IMG/VR virus record: IMGVR_UViG_2651869691_000012
Span: 1 to 17,954 of that record
From: a virus
Lineage: Duplodnaviria > Heunggongvirae > Uroviricota > Caudoviricetes
Direction: 5' to 3' (one strand)
Length of the DNA stretch: 17,954 bases
Part shown: positions 1-9,332 of the stretch, in pieces
How the letters are laid out: each line of letters starts with the position of its first letter
Position numbering within the stretch: position 1 is the first letter of the stretch
Made by a program: the position numbers and the translations under genes
Notes under the pieces: generated by a model
What the model was told of the DNA's origin: nothing
The model's input: only the letters and a program-made list of their open reading frames with translations
Database searches by the model: none

Positions 1-1284
1 TTACTTCTTCGCCTCTGCAACCACTTTGCTACCCACGCCGCGGTTATTGTATTCCCACATGCGGTTGTAGTTTGTGTCATTCAGATTGCGCTGTATTTCG
101 TCTTTATCATCAACGCTGCCGGTGTTACCCGCAAACGGACGATTTGAGATCACCGCATCGGCCCACGGTTTCGCCGTGTTAAAACCTTCGTTGATGGCGC
201 TATCACGGATCACCACCTGACCGTTGGTATTAGCATCAACATCCAGCGAGCGGCCCAGTTGCGCCACACCATCACCGGAAGCATTGAAACGGCTGTTTAC
301 GGCGAGGAAACCGTAGTAAATGTTGGACAGCGTAGCCGGTGCAAACACATACGCTTCTTGCTGGGTACGGGAGTTCACCACGCGGAATTCGGTGTTATCG
401 AACACCACTGCGCCGCGACCAGAAACGATATCCACATCCCCTTCAATATAGCTGTTGGTCACCAGCGTACGCGGCTGACGATTCGTTTCCAGACGGTTCT
501 GCACACCGCTGTTGGTGACAAAGAAGGTGTTCTGACGACCGAGAATGTTGACGTTATTGATCTGCACTTTGTCGCCATCAGTACGTAGTGCCACCGCCGG
601 ATGGTTACCCGCATCTACGCTATCGCCCAGCGTGTTTTCGATGGTCAGGTTTTGCAGTTGCAGGCCATTGTTTTGTGACCAGAAGACCGCAGAGCAGAGA
701 ACACCGATACTGTCGCTGCGTTTACTCTGGCAGCTATCGTACATATACCACGCCGGTTTACCTGGCATATATTTGCCGCGCGGGTTGACGTCGTGACGCC
801 AGTCGGCAGGGCTCATGCCACCATCAAGGGAAAGCCCAATCTTCACATCAATCGGTTTTTCACCTGTACCGTACAGAGTAATTCCACCCGGAGCGGCAGG
901 GACATACACCGTTCCCTGATACTCACCAGGCATCACGGCAATATACTGGCGCTTGTTGGTACGCTTGATAATTGCCGCATCTACCGCCGCCTGAATCGTG
1001 GTATGCGTTACACCTTGAGTACCCGCCGGGCCGACAACAAAGTCAGGTTGCGCAGGCAGGGTAATCGGGGAAGGATTCCACGCTGCCGCACCTGGTGTCA
1101 GGGATGCAAAATAGTGTTGAGCATCGAAATTCTGCGCTTCTTTTGCCGACAGAATCGGGCGAGAAGAGGTACCAGGCGCGGTTTGATCAGAAGGACGTTG
1201 ATCGGGCGGTGTTGAGCTACAGGCGGTCAGCGTCACGCCAAAAGCCAATGCCAGCGCCAGACGGGAAACTGAAAATGTGTTCAC
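1..1284 (-). CDS. ybhC: YbhC, pectinesterase-family outer-membrane lipoprotein (host chromosomal gene flanking attB-lambda)
   Basis: Complete 427-aa ORF with a lipoprotein-type N-terminus (LALALAFGVTLTACSS). I recognise the protein as E. coli YbhC. Host-like GC content. Confidence 0.85.
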   Translation of the reverse strand: MNTFSVSRLALALAFGVTLTACSSTPPDQRPSDQTAPGTSSRPILSAKEAQNFDAQHYFASLTPGAAAWNPSPITLPAQPDFVVGPAGTQGVTHTTIQAAVDAAIIKRTNKRQYIAVMPGEYQGTVYVPAAPGGITLYGTGEKPIDVKIGLSLDGGMSPADWRHDVNPRGKYMPGKPAWYMYDSCQSKRSDSIGVLCSAVFWSQNNGLQLQNLTIENTLGDSVDAGNHPAVALRTDGDKVQINNVNILGRQNTFFVTNSGVQNRLETNRQPRTLVTNSYIEGDVDIVSGRGAVVFDNTEFRVVNSRTQQEAYVFAPATLSNIYYGFLAVNSRFNASGDGVAQLGRSLDVDANTNGQVVIRDSAINEGFNTAKPWADAVISNRPFAGNTGSVDDKDEIQRNLNDTNYNRMWEYNNRGVGSKVVAEAKK

Positions 1285-1330
1285 AGGTTGCTCCGGGCTA
1301 TGAAATAGAAAAATGAATCCGTTGAAGCCT

Positions 1331-1345
1331 GCTTTTTTATACTAA
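1331..1345. other. attL core (15-bp overlap region O of the lambda att site), with bacterial B arm to the left and phage P-prime arm to the right
   Basis: Exact GCTTTTTTATACTAA. The left flank AAGCCTGC matches the attB left arm as I remember it. The right flank (TTATAAAAAAGCATTGCTTATCAATTTGTTGCAACGAACAGGTCACTATCAGTCAAAATAAAATCATTATTTG) is the lambda P-prime arm, which carries the Int arm-type sites. Confidence 0.85.
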
Positions 1346-1418
1346 GTAGGCCTTATAAAAAAGCATTGCTTATCAATTTGTTGCAACGAACAGGTCACTA
1401 TCAGTCAAAATAAAATCA
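1346..1418. promoter_or_regulatory. P-prime arm of attL (Int arm-type binding sites)
   Basis: Sequence between the core and the int stop codon matches the lambda P-prime arm as I remember it, with a few substitutions next to the core. Confidence 0.7.
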
Positions 1419-2489
1419 TTATTTGATTTCAATTTTGTCCCACTCCCTGCCTCTGTCATCACGATACTGTGATGCCATGGTGTCCGACTTATGCCCGAGA
1501 AGATGTTGAGCAAACTTATCGCTTATCTGCTTCTCATAGAGTCTTGCAGACAAACTGCGCAACTCGTGAAAGGTAGGCGGATCCCCTTCGAAGGAAAGAC
1601 CTGATGCTTTTCGTGCGCGCATAAAATACCTTGATACTGTGCCGGATGAAAGCGGTTCACGACGAGTAGATGCAATTATGGTTTCTCCGCCAAGAATCTC
1701 TTTGCATTTATCAAGTGTTTCCTTCATTGATATCCCGAGAGCATCAACATGCAATGTTGTAGGGATGGCAATTTTTACGCCTGTTTTGCTTTGCTCGACA
1801 TAAAGATATCCATCTACGATATCAGACCACTTCATTTCGCATAAATCACCAACTCGCTGCCCGGTAACAACAGCCAGCTCCATTGCAAGTCTTAGCCAAC
1901 ATGGTGATGATTCTGCTGCTTGATAAATTTTCAGGTATTCGTCAGCCGTAAGTCTTGATCTCCTTACCTCTGATTTTGCTGCGCGAGTGGCAGCGACCGG
2001 GTTTGTTGTTATATGGCCTTCAGCTATTGCCTCTCGGAATGCATCGCTCAGTGTTGATCTGATTAACTTGGCTGACGCCGCCTTGCCCTCGTCTATGTAT
2101 CCACTGAGCATTGCCGCAATTTCTTTTGTGGTGATGTCTTCAAGTGGAGCATCAGGCAGACCCCTCCTTATTGCTTTAATTTTGCTCATGTAATTTATGA
2201 GAGTCTTCTGCTTGATTCCTCTGCTGGCGAGGATTTTTTCGTAGCGATCAAGCCATGAATGTAACGTAACAGAATTATCACTGTTGATTCTCGCTGTCAG
2301 AGGCTTGTGTTTGTGTCCTGAAAATAACTCAATGTTGGCCTGTATTGCTTCAGTGATTGCTATCCTCCTGTCTCGGCCTAATCCAAACTCTTTACCCGTC
2401 CTTGGGTCCCTGTAGCAGTAATATCCATTGTTTCTTATATAAAGATTAGGGGGTAAATCCCGGCGCTCATGACTTCGCCTTCTTCCCAT
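1419..2489 (-). CDS. int: Integrase, tyrosine site-specific recombinase (lambda Int)
   Basis: 356-aa ORF, near-identical to lambda Int as I remember it (MGRRRSHERRDLPPNLYIRNNGYYCYRDPRTGKEF...HELRSL...ASQYRDDRGREWDKIEIK). Overlaps xis as in lambda. Confidence 0.97.
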   Translation of the reverse strand: MGRRRSHERRDLPPNLYIRNNGYYCYRDPRTGKEFGLGRDRRIAITEAIQANIELFSGHKHKPLTARINSDNSVTLHSWLDRYEKILASRGIKQKTLINYMSKIKAIRRGLPDAPLEDITTKEIAAMLSGYIDEGKAASAKLIRSTLSDAFREAIAEGHITTNPVAATRAAKSEVRRSRLTADEYLKIYQAAESSPCWLRLAMELAVVTGQRVGDLCEMKWSDIVDGYLYVEQSKTGVKIAIPTTLHVDALGISMKETLDKCKEILGGETIIASTRREPLSSGTVSRYFMRARKASGLSFEGDPPTFHELRSLSARLYEKQISDKFAQHLLGHKSDTMASQYRDDRGREWDKIEIK

Positions 2490-2685
2490 TTCTGATCCTC
2501 TTCAAAAGGCTACCTGTTACTGGTCGATTTAAGTCAACCTTTACCGCTGATTCGTGGAACAGATACTCTCTTCCATCCTTAACCGGAGGAGGGAATATCC
2601 TGCATTCGCGCACCCATCGACGAACTGTTTCAAGGCTTCTTGGGCGTCGCTGGCGTGCATTCCACTCCTGAAGTGTCAAGTACAT
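2467..2685 (-). CDS. xis: Excisionase (lambda Xis)
   Basis: 72-aa ORF MYLTLQEWNARQRRPRSLETVRRWVRECRIFPPPVKDGREYLFHESAVKVDLNRPVTGSLLKRIRNGKKAKS, recognised as lambda Xis. Its 3' end overlaps the int start. Confidence 0.95.
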   Translation of the reverse strand: MYLTLQEWNARQRRPRSLETVRRWVRECRIFPPPVKDGREYLFHESAVKVDLNRPVTGSLLKRIRNGKKAKS

Positions 2686-2791
2686 CGCAAAGTCTCCGCA
2701 ATTACACGCAAGAAAAGCCGCATTGATGCGGCGATGGTAGGTCTGGATATCATTGAGCCATGAACAGGCCTCATCGAGTGTGAGGCTGTGG

Positions 2792-3136
2792 TTAGTCCTT
2801 TCGTAACTCGCTGATTCTCCTGTAAGTCTCTGGTGCTTTGTTTTCGTGTATCTTCATTTCAGACTTCAACAGAGCAACGAGGGAATCCCATTCGTTGAGG
2901 ATGCCTTTGAATGCCGGAACGCGCTTTGCAACCTTGTCGAATGAATCTCTGATTTCTGGAATCTTCTCAACAAGTGCAACGCATCGTCGGAAGTCTGCTG
3001 CGTCATGGGGAGCGCCGAAGTGATGACCATAGATATTCTTTTTCAGGCCACATGCGATTGAGGCAAGAGTTGCGCTACTGATGCCAACATCGCCAGTCGA
3101 TTGCCATTTCAAAACCTTCATAGACAAATCTGACAT
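2792..3136 (-). CDS. Hypothetical early-left (b-region) protein, 114 aa
   Basis: ORF in operon orientation with a GGAGA Shine-Dalgarno 6 nt upstream of the ATG. Protein-like composition. I do not recognise a family. Confidence 0.55.
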   Translation of the reverse strand: MSDLSMKVLKWQSTGDVGISSATLASIACGLKKNIYGHHFGAPHDAADFRRCVALVEKIPEIRDSFDKVAKRVPAFKGILNEWDSLVALLKSEMKIHENKAPETYRRISELRKD

Positions 3137-3164
3137 TTCTTGTCTCCAATAAAAAAAACCTCCA

Positions 3165-3332
3165 TCAGGCGGCTTGGTGTTCTTTCAGTTCTTCAATTCG
3201 AATATTGGTTACGTCTGCATGTGCTATCTGCGCCCATATCATCCAGTGGTCATAGCAGTCATTGATGTTCTCTGCTTCGATAACTCTGTTGAATGGTTCT
3301 CCATTCCATTCACCTGTGACTCGGAAGTGCAT
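3165..3332 (-). CDS. Small hypothetical protein, 55 aa (below the ORF-track cutoff)
   Basis: Translated by hand: MHFRVTGEWNGEPFNRVIEAENINDCYDHWMIWAQIAHADVTNIRIEELKEHQAA. GGAG Shine-Dalgarno about 8 nt upstream. Fills the gap between flanking same-strand genes. Confidence 0.35.
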   Translation of the reverse strand: MHFRVTGEWNGEPFNRVIEAENINDCYDHWMIWAQIAHADVTNIRIEELKEHQAA

Positions 3333-3404
3333 TTATCATCTCCATAAAACAAAATCCGCCGTAGCGAGTTCAGATAAAAGAAATCCCCGCGAGTGCGAGG
3401 ATTG

Positions 3405-3689
3405 TTATTCATTGCCGATATTCACCTTTATCGCGAACACCTTTACCGGTTTATCACCGAAGTGCGGATGTGTGATTGTCTTGATTTCATATCCGTCATA
3501 CGGAACATCAATTCTGCGGCTGGAATCGTCGCGCTTCGGATATCCCTTCGTGATGATCAGACTGCCATACTCGCGGTTAACGAGGCGCTTTTTCCAGTAG
3601 TCATTAACAAGGCGATACTCTTCCGTTTTCTCTCCGCGAATCATGGCATCGAAGTATTCACTTTTAACAGCAAGTTGCAGGTTAGCCAT
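3405..3689 (-). CDS. ASCH-domain-like protein, 94 aa from the ATG
   Basis: N-terminal pattern (LQLAVKSEYFDAMIRGEKTEEYR) is typical of ASCH/PUA-like domains. The ATG shares one nucleotide with the stop of the upstream gene (TGATG), suggesting translational coupling. Confidence 0.55.
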   Translation of the reverse strand: MANLQLAVKSEYFDAMIRGEKTEEYRLVNDYWKKRLVNREYGSLIITKGYPKRDDSSRRIDVPYDGYEIKTITHPHFGDKPVKVFAIKVNIGNE

Positions 3690-3910
3690 CACTTAATCCC
3701 CCTTTGTTTGCGGATAAGCTCCAGATCTTGCTGGCAACTTGCACAAGTCCGACAACCCTGAACGGCCAGGCGTCTTCGCTCATCTATGGGATCGCCACAC
3801 TCACAACAATGAGTGGCAGATATAGCCTGGTGGTTCAGGCGGCGCATTTTTATTGCTGTGTTGCGCTGTAATTCTTCAATTTCTGATGCTGAATCAATGA
3901 TGTCTGCCAT
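3689..3910 (-). CDS. TraR/DksA-family C4 zinc-finger protein, 73 aa (lambda Orf73-like)
   Basis: CxxC-x17-CxxC motif (CCECGDPIDERRRLAVQGCRTCASC) preceded by a helical segment. Size and motif fit the phage TraR-like family. Confidence 0.7.
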   Translation of the reverse strand: MADIIDSASEIEELQRNTAIKMRRLNHQAISATHCCECGDPIDERRRLAVQGCRTCASCQQDLELIRKQRGIK

Positions 3911-4008
3911 CTTCCATTAATCCCTGAATTGTTGGTTAATACGCTTGAGGGTGAATGCGAACAATAAAAAAGGAGCCTGTAGCTCCCTGATGATTTTGCT
4001 TTTCATGT

Positions 4009-4290
4009 TCATCGCTCCTTAAAGACGCCGTTTAACATGCCGATCGCCAGACTTAAATGAGTCGGTGTGAGTCCCATCAGCGTTACCGTTTCGCGGTGCT
4101 TCTTCAGTACGCTACGGCAAATGTCATCGACGTTTTTATCCGGAAACTGCTGTCTGGCTTTTTTGATTTCAGAATTAGCCTGACGGGCAATGCTGCGAAG
4201 GGCGTTTTCCTGCTGAGGTGTCATTGAACAAGTCCCATGTCGGCAAGCATAAGCACACAGAATATGAAGCCCGCTGCCAGAAAAATGCAT
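4009..4290 (-). CDS. Ea8.5-like protein, 93 aa (Cys/His cluster plus helical domain)
   Basis: 93-aa ORF with an N-terminal C-x3-C-x-H-x2-C cluster followed by a helical region. Size and architecture fit my memory of lambda Ea8.5. The start is ambiguous: an internal Met (MTPQQ...) is an alternative. Confidence 0.5.
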   Translation of the reverse strand: MHFSGSGLHILCAYACRHGTCSMTPQQENALRSIARQANSEIKKARQQFPDKNVDDICRSVLKKHRETVTLMGLTPTHLSLAIGMLNGVFKER

Positions 4291-4300
4291 TCAGTGGTTG

Positions 4301-4492
4301 TCATACCAGGTCTCTCTCATCTGCTTCTGCTTTCGCCACCATCATTTCCAGCTTTTGCGAAAGGGATGTGGCTAACGTATGAAATTCTTCGTCTGTTTCT
4401 ACTGGTATTGGCACAAACCTGACTCCAATTTGAGCAAGGCTATGTGCCATCTCAATACTCGTTCTTAACTCAACAGGAGATGCTTTGTGCAT
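4301..4492 (-). CDS. Small early-left protein, 63 aa (lambda orf63-like)
   Basis: GGGAGG Shine-Dalgarno upstream of the ATG. Size and position relative to exo match a lambda small ORF. Confidence 0.6.
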   Translation of the reverse strand: MHKASPVELRTSIEMAHSLAQIGVRFVPIPVETDEEFHTLATSLSQKLEMMVAKAEADERDLV

Positions 4493-4647
4493 ATCGCCTC
4501 CCGTTTATTATTTATCTCCTCAGCCAGCCGCTGGGCTTTCAGCGGATTTCGGATAACAGAAAGGCCGGGAAATACCCAGCCTCGCTTCGTAACGGAGTAG
4601 ACGAAAGTGATCGTGCCTACGCGGATATTATCGTGAGGATGCTTCAT
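4465..4647 (-). CDS. Small early-left protein, 60 aa (lambda orf60a-like)
   Basis: Start placed at the second ATG (MKHPHD...), which has a GGGGAG Shine-Dalgarno 8 nt upstream. The 3' end overlaps the exo start by 4 nt. Confidence 0.6.
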
Positions 4648-5324
4648 CGCCATTGCTCCCCAAATACAAAACCAATTTCAGCCAGTGCCTCGTCCATTTT
4701 TTCGATGAACTCCGGCACCATCTCGTCAAAACCCGCCATGTACTTTTCATCCCGCTCAACCACGACATAATGCAGGCCTTCACGCTTCATACGCGGGTCA
4801 TAGTTGGCAAAGTACCAGGCATCTTTTCGCGTCACCCACATGCTGTACTGCACCTGGGCCATGTAAGCCGACTTTATGGCCTCGAAACCACCGAGCCTGA
4901 ACTTAATGAAATCCCGGGAGGTAAACGGGCATTTCAGCTCAAGGCCGTTGCCGTCACTGCATAAACCATCGGGAGAGCAGGCGGTGCGCATACTTTCGTC
5001 GCGATAGATGATCGGGGATTCAGTAACATTCACGCCGGAAGTGAATTCAAACAGGGTTCTGGCGTCGTTCTCGTACTGTTTTCCCCAGGCCAGCGCCTTA
5101 GCATTAACTTCCGGAGCCACACCGGTGCAAACCTCAGCCAGCAGGGTGTGGAAGTAGGACATTTTCATGTCAGGCCACTTCTTTCCTGAGCGGGGCTTTG
5201 CTATCACGTTGTGAACTTCTGAAGCGGTGATGACGCCGAGCCGTAATTTGTGCCATGCATCATCCCCCTGTTCGACAGCTCTCACGTCGATCCCGGTACG
5301 CTGCAGGATAATGTCCGGTGTCAT
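4644..5324 (-). CDS. exo: Lambda exonuclease (Red-alpha)
   Basis: 226-aa [53 protein letters not shown]..., recognised as lambda Exo. ATGA overlap with the bet stop. Confidence 0.97.
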
Positions 5325-6106
5325 GCTGCCACCTTCTGCTCAGTGGCTTTCTGTTTCAGGAATCCAAGAGCTTTCACTGCTTCGGCCTGTGTCAGTTCTG
5401 ACGATGCGCGAATGTCGCGGCGAAATATCTGGGAACAGAGCGGCAATAAGTCGTCATCCCATGTTTTATCCAGGGCGATTAGCAGAGTGTTAATCTCCTG
5501 CATGGTTTCATCGTTAACCGGAGTGATGTCGCGTTCCAGCTGACGTTCTGCAGTGTATGCAGTATTTTCGACAATGCGCTCGGCTTCATCCTTGTCATAG
5601 ATACCAGCAAATCCGAAGGCCAGACGGGCACACTGAATCATAGCTTTATGCCGTAACATCCGTTTAGGATGCGACTGCCACGGCCCCGTGATTTCTCTGC
5701 CTTCGCGGGTTTTGAATGGTTCGCGGCGGCATTCATCCATCCATTCGGTAACGCAGATCGGATGATTACGGTCCTTGCGGTAAATCCGGCATGTACAGGA
5801 TTCATTGTCCTGCTCAAAGTCCATGCCATCAAACTGCTGGTTTTCATTGATGATGCGGGACCAGCCATCAACGCCCACCACCGGAACGATGCCGTTCTGC
5901 TTATCAGGGAAGGCGTAAATTTCTTTCGTCCACGGATTAAGGCCGTACTGGTTGGCGACGATCAACAATGCGATGAACTGCGCATCGCTGGCATCGCCTT
6001 TAAATGCCGTCTGGCGAAGAGTGGTGATCAGTTCCTGTGGGTCGACAGAATCCATGCCGACACGTTCAGCCAGCTTCCCTGCCAGCGTTGCGAGTGCTGT
6101 ACTCAT
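5321..6106 (-). CDS. bet: Red-beta single-strand annealing protein
   Basis: 261-aa [69 protein letters not shown]..., recognised as lambda Bet. Confidence 0.97.
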
Positions 6107-6111
6107 CCGTT

Positions 6112-6528
6112 TTATACCTCTGAATCAATATCAACCTGATGGTGAGCAATGGTTTCAACCATGTACCGGATGTGTTCTGCCATGCGCTCCTGAAACTCAA
6201 CATCGTCATCAAACGCACGGGTAATGGCTTTTTTGCTGGCCCCGTGGCGTTGCAAATGATCGATGCATAGCGATTCAAACAGGTGTTGGGGCAGGCCTTT
6301 TTCCATGTCGTCTGCCAGTTCTGCCTCTTTCTCTTCACGGGCTATCTGCTGGTAGTGACGCGCCCAGCTCTGAGCCTCAAGACGATCCTGAATGTAATAA
6401 GCGTTCATGGCCGAACTCCTGAAATAGCTGTGAAAATATCGCCCGCGAAATGCCGGGCTGATTAGGAAAACAGGAAAGGGGGTTAGTGAATGCTTTTGCT
6501 TGATCTCAGTTTCAGTATTAATATCCAT
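6112..6528 (-). CDS. gam: Gam, RecBCD inhibitor
   Basis: 138-aa [64 protein letters not shown]..., recognised as lambda Gam. Confidence 0.95.
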
Positions 6529-6626
6529 TTTTTATAAGCGTCGACGGCCTCACGAAACATCTTTTCATCGCCAATAAAAGTGGCAATAGTGAATTTTGTC
6601 TGGATAGCCATAAGTTTTTTATCCAT
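6483..6626 (-). CDS. kil: Kil (host killing / FtsZ-targeting small protein), 47 aa
   Basis: Internal ATG of the longer track ORF gives [47 protein letters not shown], 47 aa as in lambda. Overlaps the gam start and the cIII end. Confidence 0.85.
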
Positions 6627-6759
6627 TTTTGGGGACTCCTGGCTGATTAAGTATGTCGATAAGGCGTTTCCATCCGTCACGTAATTTACGGGTGATTCGT
6701 TCAAGTAAAGATTCGGAAGGGCAGCCAGCAACAGGCCACCCTGCAATGGCATATTGCAT
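6619..6759 (-). CDS. cIII: CIII, inhibitor of FtsH-mediated CII degradation; 46 aa, apparently C-terminally shortened
   Basis: Internal ATG with an AAGGAG Shine-Dalgarno gives [46 protein letters not shown], then stop. Lambda CIII is 54 aa by my memory. Confidence 0.85.
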   Translation of the reverse strand: MQYAIAGWPVAGCPSESLLERITRKLRDGWKRLIDILNQPGVPKNG

Positions 6760-6831
6760 GGTGTGCTCCTTATTTATACATAACGAAAAACGCCTCGAGT
6801 GAAGCGTTATTGGTATGCGGTAAAGCCGCAC

Positions 6832-7200
6832 TCAGGCGGCCTTGATAGCCATATCATCTGAATCAAATATTCCTGATGTATCGATATCGGTAATTCTTAT
6901 TCCTTCGCTACCATCCATTGGAGGCCATCCTTCCTGACCATTTCCATCATTCCAGTCGAACTCACACACAACACCATATGCATTTAAGTCGCTTGAAATT
7001 GCTATAAGCAGAGCATGTTGCGCCAGCATGATTAATACAGCATTTAATACAGAGCCGTGTTTATTGAGTCGGTATTCAGAGTCTGACCAGAAATTATTAA
7101 TCTGGTGAAGTTTTTCCTCTGTCATTACGTCATGGTCGATTTCAATTTCTATTGATGCTTTCCAGTCGTAATCAATGATGTATTTTTTGATGTTTGACAT
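6832..7200 (-). CDS. ea10: Ea10 protein (lambda ea10 / ssb)
   Basis: 122-aa ORF in the position and of the size of lambda Ea10, with an acidic C-terminal half. Confidence 0.8.
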   Translation of the reverse strand: MSNIKKYIIDYDWKASIEIEIDHDVMTEEKLHQINNFWSDSEYRLNKHGSVLNAVLIMLAQHALLIAISSDLNAYGVVCEFDWNDGNGQEGWPPMDGSEGIRITDIDTSGIFDSDDMAIKAA

Positions 7201-7219
7201 CTATTCATATCCTCATAGA

Positions 7220-7246
7220 TAAAAAATCGCCCTCACACTGGAGGGC
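7220..7246 (-). terminator. Rho-independent terminator-like hairpin on the pL-operon strand, upstream of ea10
   Basis: GCCCTC-ACACTG-GAGGGC stem-loop (7229-7246), followed on the minus strand by a T-run (complement of AAAAAAT at 7221-7227). Confidence 0.5.
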
Positions 7247-7369
7247 AAAGAAGATTTCCAATAATCAGAACAAGTCGGCTCCTGTTTAGTTACGAGCGAC
7301 ATTGCTCCGTGTATTCACTCGTTGGAATAAATACACAGTGCAGTGTTTATTAGTATGCCTGTCTTTTAA

Positions 7370-8267
<898 letters not shown>

Positions 8268-8424
8268 CTGGATTCTCTTGTCAGTTAGCTTTGGTGGTGT
8301 GTGTGAGTCGTAGTCCTGAACGAAAACACCCCCGATTGGCTCATTTGCAGCTAATCCGGATTCGCACTTCCGGCCAATGCTTCGTTTCGTATCACACACC
8401 CCAAAGCCTTCTGCTTTGAATGCT

Positions 8425-8455
8425 GCCCTTCTTCAGGGCTTAATTTTTAAGAGCA
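8425..8455 (-). promoter_or_regulatory. nutL (boxB hairpin GCCCTGAAGAAGGGC and boxA-like TGCTCTTAA, read on the minus strand)
   Basis: Minus-strand sequence is GATGCTCTTAAAAATTAAGCCCTGAAGAAGGGC. boxB is exact for lambda nutL. boxA begins T rather than the C I remember for lambda. Confidence 0.85.
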
Positions 8456-8494
8456 TCACCTTCATGGTGGTTAGTGCGTCCTGCTGATGGCCAA

Positions 8495-8523
8495 ATAGTA
8501 CGATTTGTACTTTATTGAGTCAA
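8495..8523 (-). promoter_or_regulatory. pL-equivalent early-left promoter (-35 TTGACT, 17-bp spacer, -10 TACTAT) with an embedded operator-like palindrome
   Basis: Minus strand reads TTGACT-caataaagtacaaatcg-TACTAT. The palindrome AGTACAAATCGTACT overlaps the spacer and -10. Sits upstream of nutL and N. Confidence 0.7.
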
Positions 8524-8584
8524 TACAAAATGTTCTAAATATAATTAGTTTTTTATAACGCTTTGTATTTAGTGGGTTTATATT

Positions 8585-8616
8585 TTGGAAAAAGAAAACC
8601 CGACACTAAGGTCGGG
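8585..8616 (-). terminator. Rho-independent terminator downstream of the repressor gene
   Basis: CCCGAC-ACTAAG-GTCGGG hairpin (8599-8616), followed on the minus strand by TTTTCTTTTTCC. Confidence 0.6.
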
Positions 8617-8648
8617 TTATTGTTGTGTGCTTTAGAGTGGTGAGGCTG

Positions 8649-9302
8649 TTAACTAAATGTCTCTTCAGGCCACTGGCTGGCAATAACTTTCCCTACTACG
8701 GAACAGCTATCATTGCATGGAATCATTGGATATTGCGGGTTTAGTGGCTGTAGGAACACCTGACCGCTATCCCTGATCAGTTTCTTGAAGGTAAACTCGT
8801 CACCACCAAGTCTGGCTATGCAGAAATCACCTGGCTCAACAGCCTGCTCAGGGTCAACGAGAATTAACATCCCGTCAGGAAAGCTTGGCTTGGATCCTGT
8901 TGGCGCGGTCATGGAATTACCTTCAACTTCAAGCCAGAACGCACAATCACTGGCTTTTTTGGTTGTGCTGACCCATCTCTCCGCATCACCTTTGGTAAAG
9001 GTTCTAAGCTCAGGCGAGAACATCCCGGCCTGAACATGAGAAAAAACAGGGTACTCATATTGTTTTTTAACGGGGGCAGATGAGTATTCGCCAACAGGTG
9101 AAAATGTACCGTCGTGGTTGAATGAGACGTTATCAATACCAAGGTATTTAAACACCACACCAATCTCGTCAAGAGATGGATGACGAGATCCGCGCAACCA
9201 GTGACCAATTCCACCCTGCGTCATACCAAGCTCTTCAGCTAACTTCTCTTGAGTTATGCCGAGCTCTTTCATTCTGGATCTAGCCAGTTCATACCATTTC
9301 AT
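8649..9302 (-). CDS. cI: CI-type prophage repressor, chimeric: non-lambda HTH N-terminal domain fused to a lambda-CI-type LexA-like (S24) C-terminal domain
   Basis: C-terminal half ([21 protein letters not shown]...[88 protein letters not shown]) matches lambda CI as I remember it, with the Ala-Gly cleavage site, catalytic Ser and Lys. N-terminal about 80 aa are an unrelated XRE-type HTH. Start chosen at the ATG with AAGGG 7 nt upstream; ATGs at 9308 and 9344 are alternatives. Confidence 0.85.
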
Positions 9303-9317
9303 TTTCATACCCTTATT

Positions 9318-9332
9318 ATTACGCTCTGTACT
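9318..9332. promoter_or_regulatory. Operator-like element on the pRM side (AGTACAGAGCGTAAT on the minus strand)
   Basis: Third copy of the AGTACA-N-A-N-CGTA-N-T element found in pL and pR. Lies immediately upstream of the repressor start. Confidence 0.45.

Follow-up and report, generated by a model that had tools for sequence, protein, structure and literature searches.

The cI gene in the 17,954-nucleotide stretch of viral DNA analysed here (the window) very probably encodes the repressor of a VT2-Sakai/Nil2/Stx2-II-type cassette (oL, cI, oR, cro), carried by an otherwise lambda-like prophage at att-lambda by ybhC, with a junction between the two halves of the gene that is ancestral. Sequence comparison indicates that cI is a domain mosaic relative to lambda with a sharp junction in the inter-domain linker, and that the exchange of domains at the linker is real, old, recurrent and family-wide and did not happen in the window prophage. 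The two-part VT2-Sakai-type repressor with a lambda-like C-terminal half is already known and was described in 2000, when the homology of VT2-Sa CI to lambda CI was reported to be high in the C-terminal and low in the N-terminal part (Fattah et al. 2000, Genes Genet Syst 75:223; PMC10742460). The 2008 epsilon34 paper places VT2-Sa and Nil2 together as one N-terminal-domain type on a lambda-like protease domain (PMC2629481), and a survey of 260 Stx-phage CI proteins assigns the VT2-Sakai type to Clade I, nearest lambda CI, at 61% overall identity (PMC8951638). The features of the window that bear on these points are collected in Table 1.

Table 1. Coordinates of the cI cassette and of the lambda-homologous blocks around it
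Feature	Position in window	Strand	Remarks
cI repressor gene, 217 aa	8649..9302	-	ORF from ATG 9302 to stop 8649-8651
CI N-terminal DNA-binding domain, residues 1-81, non-lambda, VT2-Sakai/Nil2 type	9060..9302	-	16/81 vs lambda; no lambda DNA homology
Lambda-like module of cI, residues 82-217: cleavage-site region, catalytic core, dimerisation/cooperativity surface	8649..9059	-	133/136 aa identical to lambda CI
cro, 71 aa, all-alpha HTH_3 type, outside the lambda Cro fold family	9420..9635	+	Pfam HTH_3, E = 1.4e-12
Predicted operator oR3, TATTACGCTCTGTACTA	9317..9333	.	homologue of AP005153 putative operator; leave-one-out PWM rank 1; TAC-N5-GTA core
Predicted operator oR2, ATGCACAAGATGTATTT, weakest site	9343..9359	.	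homologue of AP005153 putative operator; leave-one-out rank 16/17,938, less certain
Predicted operator oR1, AAGTACATATCGTATTA	9376..9392	.	overlaps spacer and -10 of pR
Predicted operator oL1, TAGTACGATTTGTACTT	8496..8512	.	overlaps -10 and spacer of pL
Predicted operator oL2, CAATACAAAATGTTCTA	8521..8537	.	overlaps -35 of pL
Predicted operator oL3, TATAACGCTTTGTATTT	8554..8570	.	homologue of AP005153 putative operator
Predicted pR promoter driving cro, TTTGCA, 18-nt spacer, TATTAT	9364..9393	+	consensus scan; putative function
Predicted pL promoter driving N, TTGACT, 17-nt spacer, TACTAT	8495..8523	-	consensus scan; putative function
Putative pRM region: weak -35 near 9338-9343, A/T-rich -10 near 9313-9320	9313..9343	-	placed from putative pRM in AP005153 and sequence reading
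Intrinsic-terminator-like hairpin and T-run	8597..8618	-	31 nt downstream of cI stop; in place of lambda rexA-rexB
Left lambda-homologous flank: N gene, nutL, leader	7944..8489	-	95.6% DNA identity to lambda 35037-35583; ends just before oL1
Right lambda-homologous flank: nutR, cII, O, P, ren	9642..12031	+	98.4% DNA identity to lambda 38247-40636
gam/kil/cIII/ea10 side	6296-7351		98.6% identity to lambda

Domain structure of the repressor

The cI product carries a Pfam HTH_3 match at residues 9-56 (E = 8.3e-11; 42.2 bits, cut-off 23) and a Peptidase_S24 match (PF00717) spanning residues 85-207 (E = 8.7e-29; 100 bits, cut-off 23.3). Together with an Ala-Gly cleavage site and a Ser/Lys dyad, these domains place it among the predicted self-cleaving repressors of the LexA/lambda-CI type. 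A start at ATG 9308, which would prepend Met-Lys, is equally possible. We rejected the longer starts at TTG 9350 and ATG 9344, since the extra stretch overlaps oR2/oR3 and relatives do not conserve it; in other genera the CI homologues begin at the equivalent of MKW, without conservation of the 14-aa extension. The CI forms of 231-233 aa reported by ORF finders and PGAP, with a start within oR2/oR3, are probably over-extended.

Aligned with lambda CI (NC_001416; NP_040628; BLASTP E = 3e-111), the protein is identical at 133 of 136 residues (98%) from Tyr82 to the C-terminal residue 217, corresponding to Tyr102 through 237 of the lambda precursor; the three differences are C120/S140, D198/E218 and S217/G237 (window/lambda). 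In the alignment, the lambda counterparts of Ala92-Gly93, Ser130 and Lys173 are Ala112-Gly113, Ser150 and Lys193 (precursor numbering; A111-G112, S149 and K192 in the usual mature numbering). The cleavage Ala and Gly and the dyad Ser and Lys do not vary across 121 aligned members of the family. The original prediction had described a "lambda-CI-identical" domain from about residue 82 with cleavage site and Ser/Lys dyad, all of which is borne out except that "identical" slightly overstates the match. The C-terminal half also matches the lambda CI chains 3bdn, 8gmu, 2ho0 and 1f39 in the PDB, with E values of 1e-64 to 1e-96 against lambda CI C-terminal-domain structures. On the lambda side the shared segment opens near residue 101, where the crystallised self-cleaving fragment cI101-229 (PDB 2HO0/2HNF) also has its N-terminus; what the two proteins share is therefore the whole cleavage-site region together with the catalytic and oligomerisation core.

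At the DNA level, homology to lambda starts sharply at 9059/9060, with nothing upstream of 9060 and 32 consecutive matches from 9059. A junction inside cI near 9060, at the domain linker, had been predicted, and the alignment to lambda CI puts the switch at exactly that point. Over the 411-nt lambda-like segment the identity to lambda is 92.9% (93.6% for the blastn block 8655-9059, the C-terminal part of cI), and of 29 mismatches 25 are synonymous and 4 fall at non-synonymous codons. The alleles of this segment in the window, lambda and the Stx phages are 91-93% identical pairwise, the differences again being nearly all synonymous. Identity to lambda is 96% over the first 300 nt of the segment and 84% over the last 111 nt, which reveals finer mosaicism within it.

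Residues 1-81 are identical to lambda CI at 16 of 81 positions (20%), and the N-terminal domain, whose recognition helix is QGGIGHW, is 20 residues shorter than that of lambda and lacks a lambda-style N-terminal arm. It had been characterised as an unrelated XRE-type HTH. While the low identity agrees with this description, the HTH_3 fold is common to the two N-terminal domains, whose helix-turn-helix cores agree at 11 of 21 residues, and we have dropped "unrelated" as too strong a word.

Relatives of the repressor and its cassette

The N-terminal domain had also been thought novel, a claim we rejected upon searching for its closest homologues. With the Met at 9308 taken as residue 1, the first 83 aa are 96.4% identical to the CI of Stx1 phage, Stx2 II, 2851, 1717 and PA-series phages and 95.2% identical to that of VT2-Sakai; the N-terminal domain of Nil2 CI is likewise 96% identical. 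Tblastn with these residues against 50,697 phage records returned 63, VT2-Sakai among them, at 95% identity or more, and the domain is 100% identical in phages phi458 and 720R6. The same two-domain CI with the same junction is present in VT2-Sakai (AP000363), Stx1-converting phage (AP005153), Stx2 phage II (AP005154), Nil2 (AJ413274) and 2851, and the recognition helix QGGIGHW is identical in Stx-phage CI. The immunity type is thus a known one whose C-terminal domain is naturally lambda-like, which reduces the case to ordinary immunity mosaicism.

Against VT2-Sakai, Stx1 phage and Stx2 II, the DNA of cI is 94-95% identical in the N-terminal domain and about 91% (91.2%) in the C-terminal half. 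Megablast of positions 8400-9700 gave 92.9% identity over cI and cro to Nil2, Stx1-converting phage, Stx2 II, 2851 and PA-series Stx2 phages, and Cro is identical to Stx1-phage Cro at 70 of 71 residues. The window carries a different allele from the Stx phages, and outside these genes the two also differ. Between cI and oL the Stx phages have about 1.3-1.5 kb with an extra ORF (orf22/b63), where the window has only the terminator, so that oL1 and oR1 lie about 2.3 kb apart in the Stx phages compared with 880 bp in the window; and the N, cII, O and P flanks are lambda-type in the window but HK97/HK022-type in the Stx phages. In the deposited VT2-Sakai cI (AP000363 2507-3160), an in-frame TAG replaces the Gln that starts the recognition helix (MT*GGIGHW), and the record therefore annotates only a truncated cI; the TAG may reflect either a genuine amber mutation or an error in sequencing.

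The cassette is closer still to that of several other phages. The megablast of 8400-9700 found it 99.0-99.2% identical in phages vB_EcoP-720R6, 683R2, Louie and Dewey (the last two isolated from sewage), and 97.5% identical in phi458. The CI protein of 720R6 is 100% identical to that of the window, and the C-terminal half of Dewey CI is identical as well. The backbones differ: 720R6 is a P22-like Lederbergvirus podovirus, and Louie has an HNH endonuclease and another replication module. In 720R6 (4709-7692), the same block of N, oL, cI, cro and cII, 99% identical, lies beside Erf/Abc-type recombination genes and a primase/helicase replication module. The presence of this block in a P22-like backbone shows that the cassette travels as one unit from one lambdoid backbone to another. 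Of 5,426 complete E. coli genomes, 206 have 80% or more of it, and the 90% protein cluster of CI has 1,686 member sequences.

More distant relatives are the repressors of Salmonella phages epsilon34 and g341c, which have the same N-terminal type at 55% identity and a lambda-like protease domain at 79%. The operator consensus proposed for them, WTACRAWWTGTAT (PMC2629481), resembles the window consensus. Given the large divergence, a different immunity specificity is predicted for epsilon34/g341c and the window; the working criterion for the same specificity used in the epsilon34 paper is at least 92% amino acid identity of the whole repressor (PMC2629481).

The matching CI DNA-binding domain, Cro and operators predict that the prophage belongs to the VT2-Sakai/Nil2/Stx2-II immunity group, and this assignment in turn predicts which phages a lysogen would exclude. 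The determinants of lambda immunity (imm-lambda), namely a lambda-type CI N-terminal domain, oL/oR operators and Cro, are all absent. Consistent with the original prediction, the non-lambda operators and cro and the lack of rex point to a different immunity specificity combined with what would be lambda-type cleavage and cooperativity hardware. Beyond annotation, this ordinary immunity mosaicism has little significance. It makes a clean textbook case of modular repressor evolution, in which one self-cleavage/cooperativity module is found with several DNA-binding domains across enterobacterial phages.

The one remaining biological angle is possible cross-talk between heteroimmune repressors that share the module. 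Because the dimerisation/cooperativity surface is 98% identical to lambda CI, window-type and lambda-immunity repressors in the same cell, the latter from a resident prophage or a superinfecting phage, might form mixed dimers or higher-order contacts that couple the stability and induction of heteroimmune prophages, and the short 880-bp oL-oR interval could alter looping; we regard this as a speculative and rather unlikely reading of the sequences. If true, mixed contacts could bring partial cross-immunity or dominant-negative destabilisation. For VT2-Sa and lambda, partial cross-immunity was reportedly seen (Fattah et al. 2000; PMC10742460).

Operators, promoters and Cro

Operators were located by homology: the Stx1-phage record AP005153 has annotated putative operators, and their counterparts here are three predicted sites on each side of cI with the 17-bp consensus TAGTAC-AAATT-GTACTA. 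Across the 12 half-sites A5, C6, G12 and T13 are invariant. In a leave-one-out PWM test, 5 of the 6 predicted operators rank first among 17,938 window positions and oR2 ranks 16. The PWM scan of the window gave no other strong site, and matches to TAC-N5-GTA at 11074 and 13561 were rejected as operators since they are at chance level. The window operators (TAGTAC-N5-GTACTA) differ from those of lambda, with TATCACCGC-type half-sites, and nowhere in the window, oL and oR included, does a site come within 4 mismatches of the 17-mer consensus of lambda. The elements at 8495-8523 and 9318-9391 singled out in the original prediction overlap the predicted oL and oR operators, respectively. Compared with the Stx1-phage set, the six operators have the same order and near-same spacing, with 1-2 differences each, mostly at positions 9-11, in the central spacer, or at 17, the outermost base, and one at position 3.

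The predicted operators are spaced 25/33 bp centre to centre at oL and 26/33 bp at oR, and these spacings are kept in the Stx1-phage record (25/33 and 26/32). The close and wide pairs are placed differently on the two sides, the close pair being oL1-oL2 (25 bp) at oL but oR2-oR3 (26 bp) at oR, where oR1-oR2 is 33 bp. In lambda the operators are spaced by 20-24 bp. Given the spacings, cooperative pairing of the window operators may differ from that of lambda. A consensus scan for promoters did not detect pRM. Its putative placement would produce a cI mRNA with little or no leader, like that of lambda, with the centre of oR2 about 42-44 nt upstream.

The closest solved chain to Cro is 28tn_A (E = 2.4e-16), and lambda Cro belongs to a different fold class. 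Over 62 aa, Cro and the CI N-terminal domain share 35% identity (E = 4e-13). A TQGxIGHW recognition segment had been noted in both proteins and is indeed present in each, as MTQGGIGHW in CI and CTQGAIGHW in Cro. In phage 434, CI and Cro read the same operators, and the shared TQG(G/A)IGHW fits a similar arrangement here, in which both proteins would read the same sites.

We infer operator occupancy, promoter use, cleavage and immunity by homology to lambda CI and the Stx-phage cassette. By this analogy, CI dimers would bind the three 17-bp operators at oR and the three at oL through the QGGIGHW helix of the N-terminal HTH, and this binding would repress pR and pL, with activation/autoregulation of pRM from oR2 being probable. 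The C-terminal module would supply dimerisation as well as pairwise and long-range (looping) cooperativity. As suggested by the 98% identity to lambda CI 101-236, RecA would stimulate self-cleavage of CI at Ala92-Gly93 by Ser130/Lys173, and with such a lambda-like self-cleavage module the prophage should be SOS-inducible, with lambda-like kinetics predicted. Cro, a paralogous HTH_3 protein with a near-same recognition helix, would compete at the same operators and favour lytic growth.

Age of the junction and prophage context

To place the junction in time we compared the lambda-homologous blocks of the window by blastn against lambda 33000-41000. Most of the flanking blocks (O/P, exo/bet) are 98.4-98.6% identical to lambda and N-nutL is 95.6% identical. 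With the lambda-like half of cI about 7% diverged from lambda and the flanks about 1.5%, the junction is old and family-wide and not recent. The original prediction had implied a recent crossover inside cI, specific to this prophage, between lambda and a heteroimmune phage. While such an event would account for the sharp boundary at 9059/9060 and for the lambda-like genes on either side of the cassette, the lambda-like half, at 92.9-93.6%, is the most diverged of the lambda-homologous blocks and is a sub-mosaic inside, with its last ~110 nt only 84% identical to lambda. The identical junction in Stx-phage cI genes, themselves 91% identical in the C-terminal half, and the 99% identity of the whole cassette, junction included, in unrelated phage backbones further argue against it. 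We have rejected a recent lambda crossover, which on this evidence is extremely unlikely.

It is also very unlikely that no exchange occurred at all and that cI descends vertically from an ancestor common with lambda cI, its C-terminal half frozen by purifying selection and its N-terminal domain diverging fast for a new specificity. Among 120 homologues the halves reassort: N-terminal relatives of other genera at 79-86% identity have C-terminal halves at 79-85%, whereas lambda CI is 15-20% identical to window CI in the N-terminal domain and 97-98% in the C-terminal half, lambda-type N-terminal domains go with a C-terminal half at 97%, and the N-terminal type of the window is also joined to C-terminal halves of 58-64% identity (P0028, P0029). 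These mismatched identities indicate that the two halves have different histories, and the change from undetectable DNA similarity to 32 straight matches takes place within one codon. Vertical descent does agree with the HTH_3 fold and the 11 of 21 identical core residues of the two N-terminal domains, and with the strong purifying selection on the C-terminal half seen in its 25 of 29 synonymous DNA differences. Finally, cI could be a non-functional remnant of a decaying cryptic prophage, a reading compatible with the location of the window in a chromosomal prophage beside ybhC and with the in-frame stop in the copy of the VT2-Sakai record. We consider it exceedingly improbable, as the reading frame is unbroken and keeps every catalytic and cleavage residue, its protein is 100% identical to the 720R6 cI product, the cassette is 99% identical to those of the sewage phages Louie and Dewey, and int, xis, exo, bet, N, cII, O and P are intact around it. 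A VT2-Sakai/Nil2-type cassette with an ancestral junction is the preferred explanation.

The window is the left end of a prophage at att-lambda, with host ybhC (1-1330) followed by a lambda-type integrase (1419-2489). It is collinear with the prophage of strain 2015C-4136CT1 over 412-12031, at about 98-99% identity over most of the first 12 kb. On the left of the cassette, the N protein is 94.5% identical to lambda N; on the right, lambda homology restarts 6 nt past the cro stop. A segment of 165 nt (8490-8654), with operators and the terminator-like hairpin, replaces lambda 35584-37233 (oL, rexB, rexA), and none of lambda RexA, RexB, Cro and SieB gave a tblastn match in the window. Taken with the absence of lambda-type operators, this supports the earlier description of a non-lambda cro, a distinct operator/promoter region and missing rexA/rexB.

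Three further ORFs lie in the window outside the cassette. At the position of lambda sieB, between ea10 and N, is a 167-aa ORF (7448-7951, + strand) that matches phrog_1244 (unknown function) and has paired Cys motifs (CxxC...CxxC) in its C-terminal part; it shows no homology to lambda and no match in Pfam or PADLOC, and may be a superinfection-exclusion gene of another kind or a moron gene. Lying antisense in the nin region, a 590-aa ORF (13676-15448, - strand) with a full-length match to phrog_9230 ("unknown function") and no Pfam or PADLOC match is a candidate moron or defence-type cargo gene; of the 50,697 phage records, only those of the Stx1 phages AU6Stx1 and SH2026Stx1 contain it (99.2% identity). 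Also inserted in the nin region, upstream of a Q-like gene, is a 215-aa HNH_3 endonuclease ORF (15979-16626, + strand) with a weak AP2-like DNA-binding match.
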